Assembly (NCBI RefSeq): GCF_056712565.1
Contig: NZ_CM160072.1
Strand: one strand, 5' to 3'
Length of the DNA: 64,000 bases
The translations under genes were made by a program, and so were the position numbers. The notes beneath the pieces were generated by a model. It was not told the DNA's origin. It did not search any database and saw only the letters and a program-made list of their open reading frames with translations. Of this stretch, positions 10,598-15,272 are shown piece after piece. Position 1 is the first letter of the stretch. Each line of letters starts with the position of its first letter.

Positions 10598-11503
10598 CTA
10601 TATTTCCAGACACCTGTTATCACTTAACCCATTACTGGCTTGCTGCCGTAGATATTCCCGTGGCGAGCGATAACCCAGTGCACTATGCGGATGCCATTCG
10701 TTATAATGCTCGAACGCCTCTGCAAGGTTCTTTGCTGCCGTTAACCCGTCTGGTTTGGGCATGACACTGATGTAGTCACGCTTTATCGTTTTCACGAAGC
10801 TCTCTGCTATGCCGTTACTCTCCGGACTCCGCACCGCCGTGCTCTTCGGTTCAAGCCCCAACATCCGGGCAAACTGCCGTGTTTCATTAGCCCGGTAGCA
10901 TGAACCATTATCCGTCAGCCACTCTACTGGAGACGCCGGAAGCTCGTTGCCGAAGCGGCGTTCCACCGCTCCCAGCATGACGTCCTGTACTGTTTCACTG
11001 TTGAAGCCGCCCGTAGTGACCGCCCAGTGCAGTGCCTCACGGTCACAGCAGTCCAGCGCGAACGTGACTCGCAGTTTTTCTCCGTTATCACAGCGGAACT
11101 CGAACCCGTCAGAGCACCATCGCTGATTACTTTCTTTCACAGCCACTCTGCCTGTATGTGCCCGTTTCGATGGCGGTACAGCAGGTTTTCGCTCAAGCAA
11201 CAGCGCATTCTGGCGCATGATCCGGTAAACACGTTTGGCATTGATCGCAGGCATACCATCAAGTTCTGCCTGTCTGCGAAGCAGCGCCCATACCCGACGA
11301 TAACCATACGTGGGCAGCTCTCCGATAACATGGTGTATACGGAGAAGCACATCCGTATCATCAGTGTGACGACTGCGGCGGCCATCCATCCAGTCATCGG
11401 TTCGTCTGAGAATGACGTGCAACTGCGCACGCGACACCCGGAGACAACGGCTGACTAAGCTTACTCCCCATCCCCGGGCAATAAGGGCGCGTGCGCTATC
11501 CAC
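10598..11503 (-). CDS. insD: IS2 transposase InsD (orfB)
   Basis: 301-aa translation ([34 protein letters not shown]...) recognised as IS2 InsD. Confidence 0.85.
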
Positions 11504-11826
11504 TTTTTTGCCCGTCCATATTCAACGGCTTCTTTGAGGAGTTCATTTTCCATCGTTTTCTTGCCGAGCAGGCGCTGGAGTTCTTTAATCTGCTTCATGG
11601 CGGCAGCAAGTTCAGAGGCAGGAACAACCTGTTCTCCGGCGGCGACAGCAGTAAGACTTCCTTCCTGGTATTGCTTACGCCAGAGAAATAACTGGCTGGC
11701 TGCTACACCATGTTGCCGGGCAACGAGGGAGACCGTCATCCCTGGTTCAAAGCTCTGCTGAACAATTGCGATCTTTTCCTGTGTGGTACGCCGTCTGCGT
11801 TTCTCCGGTCCTAAGACATCAATCAT
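11461..11826 (-). CDS. insC: IS2 transposase InsC (orfA)
   Basis: [49 protein letters not shown]... recognised as IS2 InsC (121 aa). Confidence 0.85.
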
Positions 11827-11875
11827 CTGCTCTCCAATGACTAGTCTAAAAACTAGTATTAAGACTATCACTTAA

Positions 11876-12010
11876 ATAAGTGATAGTCCTGATACAAGTT
11901 TTTAGAGTAGTCATTAGTGAACAGATAATTGTTAACTTAGAACCAGTAAAATGCAAACGACGCACCACGCTGGGAAAATCGCTGCTATTCAGCAGAGTTT
12001 TGTACCGAGA
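11876..12010 (+). mobile_element. diverged IS2-like 5' fragment in mirror orientation (head-to-head with the IS2 copy)
   Basis: Sequence from 11876 mirrors the reverse complement of 11830..11875 with a few mismatches, and ORF 11880..12320 begins MIVLIQVFRVVISEQIIVNLEPVKCKRRTT, a diverged echo of the IS2 InsC leader [30 protein letters not shown]. Confidence 0.6.
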
Positions 12011-12548
12011 ATTGTGGCCAGCCACTTATTGCTCTCGCGTAAGCAGGTATCCCCATCGTTTACCAGTCCAGCACATCTTGTGGTCAGACAGAAGAAGAGC
12101 AAACTGTTACTGGACTCACTGCATGCATGGTGGAGAAAAATGCCACGCTATCCAAAAATCCAGACTGGGTGAATGGTTCAGCTGTGTACTGAATCAGTGG
12201 GGCGCACTCTGTTATTACAGTGTTGACGGTCAGGCGGAGGCAGACATAATGCCGCGGAAAAAGCCCTTTGTGCCATCTGTCTCGGAAATAAAAACTCTTA
12301 TGACCTTTGTCAAATATTAAGCCCAAAAAGACCTTACGCAGCTCCGGGAGCTTCGTTATATCGCGGATTAAAGAACCTGAAACAGTCAGACTGTATCTTG
12401 GATTTTACAAACTCTTATTCGGGGATTTTAGCCCCATGACGATTTACGCAGTGAGCTGGCCTCTTTCTACGTGCAGGTATTAGCGCATTCTGGCTTCCCT
12501 GAATTCTTTTACGAGGATCACTCATTCCGTGTCTGACTGCTTCAGGGT

Positions 12549-13682
12549 TTAATTTTGCTTCTGCTGACTGAATGATGATTGGGCAGCAAGTGCAATATCC
12601 CACATAAATCCAGTCAACTCACGAGCCACCGCCGTAATGGCTACTTGTGATTTTTTCCCTTTTGCTGTCAGACTTCGGTAACGAGAACACAATCGTTGTT
12701 GAGCTTTCCATGCAATATCTTTGGAATATTGTGTTACAGAGTCCGGTCGGTAATATATAAGCCATGCCCCAACTTTTGCAGGTGTACGATAAGACCAGGC
12801 GGCTTCGTAAAGCAGACGTCTCAGTTCGCTGTTTCCAACTTTTGTTATTCCTCTGGGACGAATACTGTTTCCACTGGAATATTCACCTGGCACCAGTCCC
12901 AGAAAAGCCATGAGCTGTTTGGGATTGGAAAATCGCGAAAAATCACCCAGTTCAGCAACCAGAGTTATTGCAATTAGCTGACCAACACCTTTAAGAGCCT
13001 GCAACTGGCAGACCAGATTGCACAGAGACCACTCAGGTAACAGGCGAGATATTTCCTGGTCGAGTTGAAGTATGCGATCTTCAATCTGCTCCAGACTTTG
13101 ACAATAGTGTTGAAAAGCAATCTGTTGAGATGGCTGACTAAATGATTGATTAGCTAACCAGGTTCGATGTTTTCCTGTCCAGTGCTTTCCTGCATAATGT
13201 TTGTCTGTTCGCAATAGCATGCTCAGAATTCGCTGTCGGGCAACTCTGCTGTCTCGTTTAGCTGCTGCACGGGCTCTGATTAGATCCCGCATAGCTTCAT
13301 GAGTCAGGTCAGGGATCCAGACAGGGGTAAGTTCTCCAGCCCGCAGTAACCTGGCGAGAGAAATTGCGTCCCGATGATCATTTTTGATTCTGTCTGTCGG
13401 TGATTTTGGTATGCGGGAAGGGGCAATAACCTGGCATTTTATATTCATCGCTGTGAGTTGATGATATAGCCCAAAACCACAGGGGCCAGCCTCATAGCAG
13501 GAAAGAATGTTTCCGTAAAGTCCCTGCAATTTCTGAAATAATCGACGTACAGCCTGGGCTTCGTTGTTAATCGTACCATAATAACGAACTTCGCCAAGCC
13601 GTTCAGGTGCAGCAATAGCAACCGCCAACGTTTCTTTATGCACATCCAGCCCGACGTAAGCCGCAATATTTTCCGAATGCAT
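12549..13682 (-). CDS. IS110-family transposase/recombinase
   Basis: 377 aa, N-terminal AAYVGLDVHKETLAVAI (DEDD RuvC-like fold) and C-terminal domain typical of the IS110 family. Confidence 0.8.
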   Translation of the reverse strand: MHSENIAAYVGLDVHKETLAVAIAAPERLGEVRYYGTINNEAQAVRRLFQKLQGLYGNILSCYEAGPCGFGLYHQLTAMNIKCQVIAPSRIPKSPTDRIKNDHRDAISLARLLRAGELTPVWIPDLTHEAMRDLIRARAAAKRDSRVARQRILSMLLRTDKHYAGKHWTGKHRTWLANQSFSQPSQQIAFQHYCQSLEQIEDRILQLDQEISRLLPEWSLCNLVCQLQALKGVGQLIAITLVAELGDFSRFSNPKQLMAFLGLVPGEYSSGNSIRPRGITKVGNSELRRLLYEAAWSYRTPAKVGAWLIYYRPDSVTQYSKDIAWKAQQRLCSRYRSLTAKGKKSQVAITAVARELTGFMWDIALAAQSSFSQQKQN

Positions 13683-13769
13683 GATGACCTCCTCTGGAAT
13701 ATCCCACCAATGCTATAGTGAGTATATAAAGGTCATATCATCTTTATGTTCTTCGGCGGCGAGCGCAGT

Positions 13770-13949
13770 GCACTGTTGTATGGGCTTATCGGCACTTGCC
13801 TTCTGAACGACATTGATCCGGAAGCGTATCTGCGCCATATCCTGAGCGTACTGCCGGAATAACCTTCCAACCGTATTGATGAACTCCTGCCATGGAACGT
13901 AGTTCTCACCAATAAATAAGCATCAATATGATTCTCCATTAACGCTTAC
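13770..13949 (+). mobile_element. IS66-family right-end remnant (transposase C-terminus with a 1-bp frameshift, plus terminal repeat)
   Basis: Plus-strand translation ALLYGLIGTCLLNDIDPEAYLRHILSVLPE then, after a frameshift, ...RIDELLPWNVVL; ends at a GTAAGCG-type terminus (about 13943..13949 on the complement); near-identical inverted copy at 47718..47878. Confidence 0.55.
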
Positions 13950-14057
13950 CTTTTCTCAGGCTATTTTTGCTTTTTTTTGCTTTTCCCCGCCACTTTATGG
14001 TGATTATCACATCAATATACATCGATAGATATTAACGTAACTGAAATGAGGTGAAGC

Positions 14058-15272
14058 ATGAAATTTGAACGCCATCATGAAATATTGAAACGACTCAGTA
14101 AATTCGGTTCTGTAAAAGTATCCGATCTGTCCAATAGCCTCAATGTAACGAAAGAAACTATTCGATCAGATCTTAATGAACTTGCCAGGCTTGGCTATCT
14201 GACTCGATGTCATGGCGGTGCTTTTATCGTCCTAGACTCGCTTGATACTATTGCGAAAAATGAAATCGCTTATGCGCTTGAAAATTATGATACAGCCCAG
14301 GGAATAAAAAAAGGCCACTCAACTATGAAAAGTCAAGTATGCGTTATTGGTTCGTTTAATGTTGATATCATCAGTTATTTGCCGAGGCTTCCCACTATCG
14401 GAGAATCGCTTCTGGCAAGTAATTTTATATTTTCACCGGGGGGAAAAGGCTGTAACCAAGCGCTGGCAGCAAGCTTTGCCGATACTGATGTTTATTTCAT
14501 AACAAAAGTAGGTACAGATCACTTTAGTGATTATGCGATCAACTTTATGAATTCGTCTAAGATTTATAAAAGTATAATTTATCAAACGAAAGAAACGCAA
14601 ACCGGAACTGCCACGATCCTTGTTAATGAAGGTACTGGCGATAATGTTATTGCGATCTATCCCGGTGCCAACATGACAATGTCGTCCGATGAAATAACTA
14701 TTCAGAAAGAAGCGATTATTAATTCTGATGTCATACTTCTGCAGCTCGAAACAAATTATACCGCTCTGCAACAAGCGATCACATTGGCGCAAAAAAACAG
14801 TATCCCGGTCATTATTAACCCGGCACCCTATAATGATATCGTCAACGAACTTATTCAGGATGTTGATTATATCACCCCCAATGAAACAGAAGCTGGTTTA
14901 CTGTCCGGCATAGACGTACACGATCTTGAATCAGCTAAACGAGCTGCAGAAGCTATCCACAATAAAGGGGTAAAAAACACGGTTATCACGCTCGGTAGCA
15001 AGGGCTCGCTCGCATTTGATGGCAAAAAATTCATTCATTCGCCAGCGTTTCCAGCGGTCGTTAAAAATACGGCAGGAGCCGGGGATGCTTTTAACGGCGC
15101 TCTGGCATCAGGACTTGCGAAAGGAAAATCACTGGAATCAGCACTGTGTTATGCCAGCGCCTTTGCATCCCTAGCGGTGGAGACAAGCAATGCTTCCGAC
15201 ATGCCTGAACATGAATCTGTGATACATCGAATTCAGAGTATACATTATCAGCAAACTATTTTTACGCATTAA
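14058..15272 (+). CDS. fusion protein: DeoR-type HTH regulator domain + ribokinase/PfkB-family sugar kinase
   Basis: N-terminal DeoR HTH (HEILKRLSKFGSVKVSDLSNSLNVTKETIRSDLNEL), then kinase domain with GG dipeptide (SPGGKGCNQA) and anion-hole motif NTAGAGDAFNGAL. Confidence 0.7.
   Translation: MKFERHHEILKRLSKFGSVKVSDLSNSLNVTKETIRSDLNELARLGYLTRCHGGAFIVLDSLDTIAKNEIAYALENYDTAQGIKKGHSTMKSQVCVIGSFNVDIISYLPRLPTIGESLLASNFIFSPGGKGCNQALAASFADTDVYFITKVGTDHFSDYAINFMNSSKIYKSIIYQTKETQTGTATILVNEGTGDNVIAIYPGANMTMSSDEITIQKEAIINSDVILLQLETNYTALQQAITLAQKNSIPVIINPAPYNDIVNELIQDVDYITPNETEAGLLSGIDVHDLESAKRAAEAIHNKGVKNTVITLGSKGSLAFDGKKFIHSPAFPAVVKNTAGAGDAFNGALASGLAKGKSLESALCYASAFASLAVETSNASDMPEHESVIHRIQSIHYQQTIFTH

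Follow-up and report, generated by a model that had tools for sequence, protein, structure and literature searches.

The window analysed here, a 64,000-nucleotide stretch of DNA, carries on its minus strand a complete copy of the insertion sequence ISEc45 (12297..13741; 1445 bp between two core dinucleotides). Its transposase/recombinase gene (12549..13682, minus strand) encodes 377 amino acids comprising a DEDD (RuvC-like) N-terminal domain and a Transposase_20 C-terminal domain, and a ribosome-binding site, GGAGG, can be read from the sequence 5 nt 5' of the ATG (13688..13692, minus strand). A preliminary description of this DNA had proposed an IS110-family recombinase gene at this place. 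The proposal is borne out by Pfam matches to PF01548 (DEDD_Tnp_IS110, E 8e-16) and PF02371 (E 7e-24), by the NCBIfam model NF033542 'IS110 family RNA-guided transposase' (278.9 bits, with the cutoff at 140) and by RefSeq, which names the gene 'IS110-like element ISEc45 family transposase' in the identical region of UTI89. The protein also equals the ISEc45 protein in the Siddiquee 2024 supplements over the printed residues. Across 20 relatives, E64, D102, D105, G262, P265, S270 and G271 are invariant (catalytic-type residues and the GLxPxxxxSG motif, which reads GLVPGEYSSG in the window protein), with D13 and L263 nearly so.

The element is flanked by the two parts of an IS66-family transposase (tnpC) pseudogene remnant, both on the plus strand. 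The upstream part (12077..12296) and the downstream part (13742..13862) are contiguous in the empty site described below; the latter encodes ...GLIGTCxLNDIDPEAYLRHILSVLPE and matches the C-terminus of a reconstructed ISEc23 TnpC. Both the empty site and the RefSeq annotation of the identical UTI89 region agree with the IS66 remnant noted earlier around the recombinase gene.

Ends, core and classification of the element

Comparison with an empty site had been suggested as a way of defining the element, and it places the ends at 12297 and 13741. More specifically, the empty site from other E. coli strains (L002) reads ...AAAAACTTTATG... and fixes both junctions, and the occupied site in the window has ...AAAAACT abutting CTTATGACC... 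on one side and ...GGTCATATCAT abutting CTTTATG... on the other. By alignment, the two sites differ by the element and one CT only. Aligned to the empty site, the left and right sides overlap by 2 bp, and this overlap gives the core dinucleotide CT, found at the right-end junction (12295..12296) and again at the left-end junction (13742..13743) and reading AG in the transposase orientation. AG directly precedes the left end in all relatives, identical ends are found in ISEc45 copies within ISEc22 and ISEc23 contexts, and subtraction of the element and one core from locus L005 restores an intact 537-aa IS66 TnpC. As in the IS110 family at large, there is no target duplication beyond the shared 2-bp core.

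Both flanks of the gene had been described as non-coding (12300..12548 and 13683..13769), and apart from chance open reading frames they are. The limits given for them were roughly right, except that the upstream end measures 59 bp and not ~90 bp, as 13742–13769 already belongs to the IS66 remnant in the empty site. A repeat search recovered a subterminal inverted repeat of 10 nt with 100% complementarity, of which the right-end arm (12299..12308) reads TATGACCTTT and the left-end arm (13728..13737) reads AAAGGTCATA, both on the plus strand. The arms lie 2 and 4 nt from the element ends, and the corresponding repeats of relatives measure 7–12 bp. Because the 10-bp repeat falls within the 7–17 bp that characterise IS1111 elements, and because a 59-bp left end combined with a 252-nt non-coding region 3' of the gene reproduces their short left end and long downstream region, we assign the element to the IS1111 type.

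ISfinder has an entry for ISEc45, and Supplementary Table 5 of Durrant et al. 2024 (Nature) gives it as 'ISEc45, RE, IS1111', with a bridge RNA predicted in the right end. Both sources class it as IS1111, its transposase having 377 aa against 330–350 aa for the IS1111 type. The copy in the window is the same element with its RNA in the same end, and nothing differs in kind; ISEc45 and the location of its bridge RNA are already known, and no new kind of system is described here. A further reference point is ISCARN28 (Durrant et al. 2024, Fig. 6d / Extended Data Fig. 10c), an IS1111-group element with an RNA in the right end whose loops those authors examined manually for pairing with target and donor. 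Its transposase belongs to the same subfamily (44% identity over 362 aa, the full length), whereas host and element differ. In a pairwise comparison with ISEc11, the C-terminal 128 aa alone align (35%), and a PDB sequence search with the transposase returned weak C-terminal matches to IS621 and ISCro4 alone.

A structured RNA 3' of the transposase gene

The preliminary description had further suggested that a non-coding end of the element could encode a bridge RNA. In the 12300–12548 flank we find a structured, covarying RNA, a predicted bridge RNA (seekRNA) of ~171 nt (12376..12546, minus strand) that would start 3 nt past the stop codon. It consists of a long closing stem, P1 (12531–12546 with 12376–12391), and two arms with one internal loop each; the arms of P1 were also recovered as an inverted repeat in the repeat search, and the fold has a minimum free energy of -56.6 kcal/mol (z = -4.27). 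A covariance model built from 7 relatives matches 12363–12553 on the minus strand with 170 bits (E 1e-40). The same model finds 60 sites; every one shares the strand of the transposase, and almost all follow the gene immediately on its 3' side.

The structure is kept under sequence change. An RNAalifold consensus on 7 relatives contains 12 compensatory pairs. Over the 60 sites, compensatory changes occur in 32 of 35 base pairs (537 compensatory cells; 91.5% of cells paired), counts that are biased towards structure by an alignment fitted to the model. The covariation score is 0.656 compared to 0.05–0.11 in slid controls, and the weak helix is P5, which is 75% paired. The element end contains a conserved RNA structure with covariation, as expected of a bridge RNA or seekRNA.

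The covariance-model search proposed with the original suggestion gave a split outcome: the purpose-built model matches, as described above, but Rfam 15, run at gathering thresholds over the whole window, returned no match within 12297–13741. When the threshold was relaxed to E<=10 over 11800–14100, the element contained a single chance-level match, to Xist_exon1 (12466–12561; E 3.9; 12.3 bits where the gathering score is 50), and nothing resembling a bridge RNA. Other weak Rfam matches, on an IS2-related palindrome at ~11800–11970, were rejected as spurious and of microRNA type. Rfam alone would have wrongly refuted the bridge RNA idea. Rfam 15 cannot detect this class of RNA, and genome scans therefore need purpose-built models. 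H147 and H148, which contain part of the non-coding region but lack an annotated gene, were considered as orphan RNA genes and rejected, being ordinary ISEc45 copies cut by IS3-family insertions.

In position the RNA follows the IS1111 subgroup, lying 3' (downstream) of the transposase gene, and differs from IS621, where it is upstream. IS621-type elements do carry their RNA upstream, and the preliminary description left both flanks open; it could accordingly be argued that the bridge RNA of ISEc45 occupies the upstream (5') end, as in IS621 and the IS110 group, and that the downstream region is merely a 3' untranslated tail. We regard this as extremely improbable, given that the true upstream end has only 59 bp, which the inverted repeat, the -10 half of the junction promoter described below and the ribosome-binding site take up, that the model derived from relatives matches the downstream region only, and that Durrant et al. 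2024 place the RNA of ISEc45 in the right end.

Guide segments in the two loops

A raw complementarity search with this copy alone yielded many short, ambiguous matches, and guides were assigned only after comparison with relatives. This comparison gives four 7-nt guides distributed over the two internal loops, each checked across relatives.

The first loop is the predicted target-binding loop. Its 5' side, AAGAAUU (12502..12508, minus strand), complements the right flank across relatives, with 6.31 of 7 positions complementary in 29 non-redundant relatives compared to 4.11 in mismatched pairs. Guide and flank covary: AAAAA faces TTTTT in L011, and AAGAA faces TTCTT in L009 and L010. Opposite the AG core this guide presents U-U and relies on a wobble. 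The 3' side, CACGUAG (12467..12473, minus strand), has the sequence of the left flank plus core and would pair with the bottom strand. In relatives, 3.5 of 5 non-core positions are identical to the real flank, against 1.27 in controls. The window copy, with the flank CATAA, matches at 2 of the 5 bases outside the core, and with the core and one wobble included 5 of 7 positions pair; an ISEc22 copy (L003) reaches 4 of 5 (CAGGT). Natural re-targeting is also seen within ISEc45, as the loop of L004 reads CAUAUAG beside the flank GAGATAG. These matches suggest a loop that recognises the target on both strands and varies with it, the left flank being weakly matched in this copy.

The second loop is the predicted donor-binding loop. 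Its 5' side, AUCGUCA (12437..12443, minus strand), pairs with the core G and left-end bases 1–5 (G-ATGAT). Real pairings average 4.7 of 6 compared to 3.53 in controls, the guide keeps a constant offset from hairpin P6, and U or C at one position covaries with A or G at left-end position 4. The 3' side, AUAAGAG (12412..12418, minus strand), is identical to the terminal 5 nt of the right end followed by the core (ATAAG-AG). This 7-mer recurs exactly, and essentially once, at the element end in 39 of the 60 sites, 32–165 nt (typically 32–102 nt) downstream of the RNA, and in other clades the guide follows the element end through ATATC, ATCGG, ATCAG and ATAAC. The exact test fails at the other 21 sites; about 14 are rescued when a single mismatch is allowed, which often falls on the second base of the core or sets a guide C against an element-end T, and the rest are truncated contigs. 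The loop would therefore match the donor on both strands including the core, with partial core pairing by the left-end guide.

Conservation of the downstream region could in principle be that of DNA, for instance of recombinase-binding sites or a terminator, with no functional guide RNA, and the integrated copy indeed has no detected promoter. This explanation is very improbable in our view. DNA conservation would not account for the compensatory changes counted above, nor for unpaired loop segments that change along with flanks and ends among relatives whose targets differ considerably, and related IS1111 elements have been shown by experiment to need their RNA. Because the helices are kept under sequence change and the loops track flanks and ends in relatives, we favour an RNA guide over a protein-binding DNA site. 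Taken together, 12297–13741 is an intact ISEc45, an IS1111-type member of the IS110 family, very probably with a ~171-nt bridge RNA (seekRNA) 3' of its transposase gene.

In its overall plan the system resembles IS621 (Durrant et al. 2024; Hiraizumi et al. 2024, PDB 8wt6), sharing two internal loops and one guide per strand on each side of a 2-bp core. The ISEc45 core, CT on the plus strand of the window, is the IS621 dinucleotide, and in the plus-strand frame the left guide comes before the right guide in each loop and the target loop before the donor loop, as in IS621. Unlike that of IS621, the ISEc45 RNA is encoded after the recombinase gene, on the strand where the core reads AG. Its guides measure 7+7 nt instead of 9+4, its inverted repeats are long, and the two proteins are weakly similar in the C-terminal domain only (E 3.7e-9).

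The seekRNAs of IS1111 elements are encoded downstream, and the segment matching the top strand precedes the one matching the bottom strand (Siddiquee et al. 2024, Nat Commun). ISEc45 shares with ISEc11, ISPa11 and ISKpn4 the downstream non-coding region, the subterminal inverted repeats, this order of top- and bottom-strand segments, a promoter assembled at the circle junction (predicted in ISEc45) and the absence of target duplication. The seekRNAs of these three elements are 82–96 nt long and were described with target matches only (Siddiquee et al. 2024), whereas the predicted ISEc45 RNA has ~171 nt with target and donor loops. The copy in the window thereby provides a worked example of an IS1111-type bridge RNA, with exact ends, a 2-bp core, four guides and a natural target, in a common uropathogenic E. 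coli lineage. The guide segments, exact ends and IS66 tnpC target of ISEc45 were not found in the literature searched, where the papers mentioning ISEc45 are resistome surveys.

Target preference and proposed transposition cycle

ISEc45 and its relatives, as far as about 57% protein identity, target DNA that codes for the conserved GRKN[FYW][LMV]F motif, located where the DDE domain of IS66-family transposases ends. Members of this clade are found in E. coli, Enterobacter, Vibrio, Nitrosomonas, Rhizobium and Planctomycetota (57–99% protein identity), and their left-flank guide tracks codon variants of the motif: CAGCC for NWLF, CAGGU for NYLF, and CACGU and CAUAU within ISEc45. The predicted best-matching IS66 tnpC target is AACTACGTGTTC, compared to AACTTTATGTTC at this site. 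On balance, we hypothesize that the ISEc45 clade is a long-lived RNA-guided lineage dedicated to GRKN[FYW][LMV]F-coding DNA, in which recognition is led by the core-proximal bases and the right-flank guide. Such dominance would explain insertions like this one, with 2 of 5 left-flank matches. The literature searched contains no statement of an IS66 target preference or of a mismatch-tolerance pattern for ISEc45.

If this hypothesis is true, ISEc45 would itself be an insertion sequence residing in a different insertion-sequence family and inactivating it. ISEc21, an RNA-guided insertion sequence, naturally targets a conserved coding motif within an IS3-family transposase gene (2024 paper); ISEc45 is like it in aiming at such a motif of a foreign transposase gene, but ISEc21 belongs to a different subgroup (RNA upstream) and its victim family is IS3 rather than IS66. 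With the IS66 motif as target, ISEc45 is a second natural example, following ISEc21 with IS3, of RNA-guided insertion sequences aimed at a conserved coding motif in another family. Possible interest lies in competition between mobile elements and in the choice of IS1111-type recombinases for genome engineering.

A promoter for the system is predicted to arise only when the ends are joined in an excised circle, with a junction of TTGACAAAGGTCATAAG-AG-ATGATATGACC. Its -35 hexamer, TTGACA (12308..12313, minus strand), and its -10 hexamer, TATGAC with a preceding TG (13732..13737, minus strand), would then stand 17 bp apart, as read from the sequence. A junction-spanning promoter is found in 24 of 24 relatives, with a mean score of 9.6/12 compared to 6.4 in shuffles. 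A simple promoter and terminator scan over 12200–13900 found neither on the minus strand of the integrated copy, and because of this the integrated copy may be silent.

From the ends, structure, covariation and guide-to-DNA matches that we observe, the following cycle can be proposed. ISEc45 has inserted into degenerate IS66-family transposase coding sequence, with no duplication beyond the shared CT core. By analogy with IS621, ISEc11 and ISPa11, the RNA-bound recombinase would pair the two element ends and excise a circle. End joining would create the TTGACA-17 bp-TATGAC promoter, from which the transposase and very probably the downstream RNA would be expressed as one transcript. The RNA would then bridge the circle junction (donor) and a new target, leading to strand exchange at the core. 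Transcription of the RNA, its binding by the recombinase and its requirement for circle formation or insertion have been shown for ISEc11, ISPa11, ISKpn4, ISEc21 and IS621 only, and transcription, protein binding and catalysis in the ISEc45 system would be expected by analogy.

How active this particular copy is forms a separate matter from its identity. Element and RNA gene may be intact and yet an immobile passenger, silent at a poorly matching site in a decayed IS66 remnant, with the RNA inactive here. No promoter reads into the transposase gene, the left-flank guide matches poorly at this site, and this insertion is found fixed across many B2-type strains (at least 80% of the 1701-bp query is present in 585 genomes), all of which is compatible with such a passenger. 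Strains with the precise empty site exist, which fits absence and precise excision alike. We nevertheless consider an immobile copy possible but unlikely, since copies sharing exactly this open reading frame, these ends and this RNA occur in numerous IS66-family contexts elsewhere, both on plasmids and in different genera. The occurrence of identical copies in such varied contexts points to recent mobility of this ISEc45 sequence type.

Boundaries and family of the ISEc45 copy

The minus-strand ORF at 12549-13682 encodes a 377-aa protein that carries both Pfam domains of IS110-family recombinases (PF01548 and PF02371) and reaches 278.9 bits (cutoff 140) with the NCBIfam model NF033542, 'IS110 family RNA-guided transposase', in agreement with the preliminary description of an IS110-family recombinase element. 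The 1701 bp surrounding the ORF are 100% identical to a locus of E. coli UTI89 and to many further strains. In the RefSeq annotation of the identical UTI89 locus, the gene is an 'IS110-like element ISEc45 family transposase' and the fragments flanking it are 'IS66 family transposase' pseudogenes. Among 20 relatives (56-87% identity), the acidic residues E64, D102 and D105 and a GLxPxxxxSG motif are invariant and D13 is nearly so. Judged by its sequence, the transposase gene in the window looks intact.

To define the element ends, we used E. coli strains (database matches H51-H63; locus L002) that have this chromosomal IS66 remnant but not the element. The empty site in L002 reads ...GGAAATAAAAACTTTATGTTCTTCGG..., while the window junctions read ...AAAAACT|CTTATGACC... 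and ...GGTCATATCAT|CTTTATGTTC.... The two empty-site alignments overlap by CT, and the element therefore spans 12297-13741 (1445 bp), bracketed by CT core copies at 12295-12296 and 13742-13743, with no target duplication beyond the CT core in this comparison. The empty-site comparison had been proposed in the preliminary description, which placed the element at 12300-13769; its right limit overshoots by 28 bp of IS66 gene bases. As an independent check of the ends, we took a copy within an otherwise intact ISEc23 (locus L005): deleting the element and one core leaves one continuous 537-aa ORF in which the four Pfam domains of IS66 transposases are all present.

A perfect 10-bp inverted repeat (12299-12308 and 13728-13737) lies 2 and 4 nt inward of the ends. 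In transposase orientation, the left end measures 59 bp and the right end 252 bp. The hallmarks of the IS1111 subgroup are inverted repeats in subterminal position together with a short left end and an extended non-coding region downstream (Siddiquee et al.); a citing paper credits them to Partridge and Hall. At 377 aa, the ISEc45 protein is nonetheless longer than typical IS1111 transposases (330-350 aa; Siddiquee et al.). It aligns with the ISEc11 protein over the C-terminal domain only, and shares 44% identity over its full length with the protein of ISCARN28, one of six elements whose bridge RNA was hand-inspected by Durrant et al. ISEc45 and the position of its RNA have been reported before: Supplementary Table 5 of Durrant et al. 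2024 contains the entry 'ISEc45, RE, IS1111', that is, a bridge RNA predicted in the right end. Siddiquee et al. include ISEc45 in their ISfinder-derived protein set without discussing it. New here are only the detailed guide map and the targeting of the IS66 motif, for which we found no description in the literature searched.

A structured RNA downstream of the transposase gene

Rfam 15 yielded no match in the downstream region at gathering thresholds, and at E<=10 the sole match within the element was a chance-level hit to Xist_exon1 (12466-12561, 12.3 bits, E 3.9). Relatives of the protein were gathered from plasmids and a single genome for each species, and the region 3' of the stop codon was aligned for seven of them (68-100% protein identity; E. 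coli, Enterobacter, Trabulsiella, Vibrio and Nitrosomonas). In the RNAalifold consensus, a long stem closes a structure of two arms, and 12 pairs show compensatory changes; ISEc45 folded as a single sequence adopts the same shape (-56.6 kcal/mol, z = -4.27). We made a covariance model from these seven sequences and searched it on the window and 84 loci, which gave 60 matches. All of them are on the strand of the transposase gene, nearly always immediately 3' of it, and they extend down to 44% protein identity. The match in the window lies at 12363-12553 on the minus strand (170 bits). The preliminary description had suggested a covariance-model search for a bridge RNA in the non-coding flanks, and its proposal holds for the downstream flank; an upstream RNA was excluded by lack of space and by the model search.

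In the 60-match alignment, standard pairs occupy 91.5% of cells (64% shuffled, 37-44% with slid partners), 32 of 35 pairs show compensatory changes, and the covariation score reaches 0.656 (slid controls, 0.05-0.11). Fitting of the alignment to the model inflates these figures somewhat, but the margin over slid controls is still large. The weakest helix, P5, is 75% paired. The RNA is closed by helix P1 and runs from 12546 to 12376 on the minus strand, starting 3 nt past the stop codon.

Joining the element ends via one core creates TTGACA-17 bp-TATGAC with TG in front, a promoter absent from the integrated state. An equivalent junction-spanning promoter occurs in all 24 relatives with definable ends (mean 9.6/12 versus 6.4 in shuffles), and such promoters have been demonstrated experimentally for ISEc11 and ISEc21. 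Scanning the minus strand of the integrated copy revealed no promoter-like or terminator-like site. On the simplest reading, the integrated copy would be nearly silent and the excised circle would give rise to one transcript of transposase and downstream RNA, later trimmed. The RNA-protein complex would then bridge the circle junction and an IS66 target, with exchange at the core.

An extra GC-rich hairpin, GAAGCUCC-CGGAGCUGC, is found between the RNA and the -35 hexamer (12336-12356, minus strand; nt 193-213 of the non-coding region). A U run does not directly follow it, the terminator scan did not pick it up, and relatives have a different hairpin at the equivalent place. Its function may be in 3' processing or termination of the RNA.

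Guide segments and the IS66 target

The unpaired strands of the internal loops differ among clades while the helices are retained. Each loop strand was tested against its expected DNA, using the nomenclature of Durrant et al. in transposase orientation; all four lie on the minus strand. For the donor loop 3' strand (AUAAGAG, 12418-12412), the aligned 7-mer has an exact counterpart in 39 of the 60 sites, essentially a single one in each, which lies 32-165 nt (typically 32-102 nt) 3' of the RNA and is preceded by the inverted repeat. About 14 further sites contain it with one mismatch; by chance, a given 7-mer is expected in ~1.6% of 260-nt windows. In other clades this 7-mer tracks the element end (ATATC-AG, ATCGG-AG, ATCAG-AG and ATAAC-AG).

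With the right end set by this 7-mer, the target loop 5' strand (AAGAAUU, 12508-12502) was compared with the next 7 nt, namely the core plus 5. Mean complementarity is 6.31/7 over 29 non-redundant sites, versus 4.11 when flanks are swapped between sites, and the loop position is constant. In Vibrio, one element pairs AAAAA with TTTTT and two others AAGAA with TTCTT. For the target loop 3' strand (CACGUAG, 12473-12467), the left end was placed independently, by the inverted repeat; its 5 non-core bases match the left flank at 3.5/5 (1.27 in controls), identity climbing from 0.45 to 0.90 toward the core. Finally, the donor loop 5' strand (AUCGUCA, 12443-12437) is complementary to the core G and left-end bases 1-5 at 4.7/6 versus 3.53, at a constant offset, and its U/C covaries with A/G at left-end position 4.

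From these four tests we infer that the ISEc45 RNA has a target-binding and a donor-binding loop, each predicted to read one strand per side of the core, as in IS621. A downstream region acting purely at the DNA level does not explain these data, since it would leave unexplained both the helix-preserving covariation and the tracking of flanks by the loops. In the two-loop RNA, the top-strand guide comes 5' of its bottom-strand counterpart, in line with the order described for IS1111 elements by Siddiquee et al. Read on the window plus strand, the core is CT as in IS621 and the guides of each loop follow the IS621 order, left before right.

All ISEc45 copies examined are inserted in an IS66-family transposase gene, among them genes of ISEc22, ISEc23, ISEc43 and unnamed members. 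The insertion point falls between K-N and F in LGKKNFMFFGS, within the final residues of the Pfam DDE_Tnp_IS66 domain. In Enterobacter, Vibrio, Nitrosomonas, Rhizobium and Limnoglobus, the flanks of relatives take the form GAACAGCC-AG-TTCTT, whose opposite strand encodes RKNWLF. The left-flank guide of these relatives is CAGCCAG, the Enterobacter guide CAGGUAG is compatible with NYLF codons, and an ISEc45 variant (L004) has CAUAUAG beside the flank GAGATAG. The window copy occupies a sub-optimal site, because its left flank CATAA matches the guide CACGU at only 2/5 (5/7 pairs including the core and one wobble); right-flank pairing is 7/7, two wobbles included.

The right junction of L004 reads CATAAG|AT|TTTTT, and the core is AA at the right junction of four other loci (L015, L026, L073 and L078). 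AT or AA thus follows the right end of these copies or relatives, in contrast to the AG of the left junction and of the RNA guides. This suggests insertion where the second core base of the target does not match, or an unresolved core heteroduplex.

Neighbouring features and disrupted copies

At 10588-11865, the window carries a 1278-bp IS2 segment (minus-strand ORFs TnpB, 10598-11503, and TnpA, 11461-11871) in place of an unrelated 177 bp in UTI89. The window is therefore a close relative of UTI89 and not UTI89 itself, with an extra IS2 beside the IS66/ISEc45 cluster. An imperfect 101-nt inverted repeat (11774-11874 and 11877-11977; 78% complementary, 2-nt spacer) consists of the IS2 5' region opposing a diverged IS2-like or IS66-tnpA-like remnant. 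This repeat (11774-11977) caused plant and animal microRNA matches in the permissive Rfam search, which we rejected as spurious. Gathering-level Rfam matches to a histidine operon leader (57776-57899, plus strand) and to the enterobacterial sRNA STnc240 (54963-55037, minus strand) are ordinary chromosomal features unrelated to ISEc45.

In E. coli strains 1070/13 and 550 (loci L088 and L089), ISEc45 copies are broken by IS3-family elements in or just 3' of the transposase gene, and the RNA gene and right end remain as unannotated fragments. In a MAG labelled Collinsella sp. (L008, contig JAIJJM010000012.1), an ISEc45 transposase gene of 99% identity lies at the end of a contig and is followed by an IS3-like coding sequence in place of the RNA region; enterobacterial contamination or a chimeric contig may account for its presence in an actinobacterial MAG.
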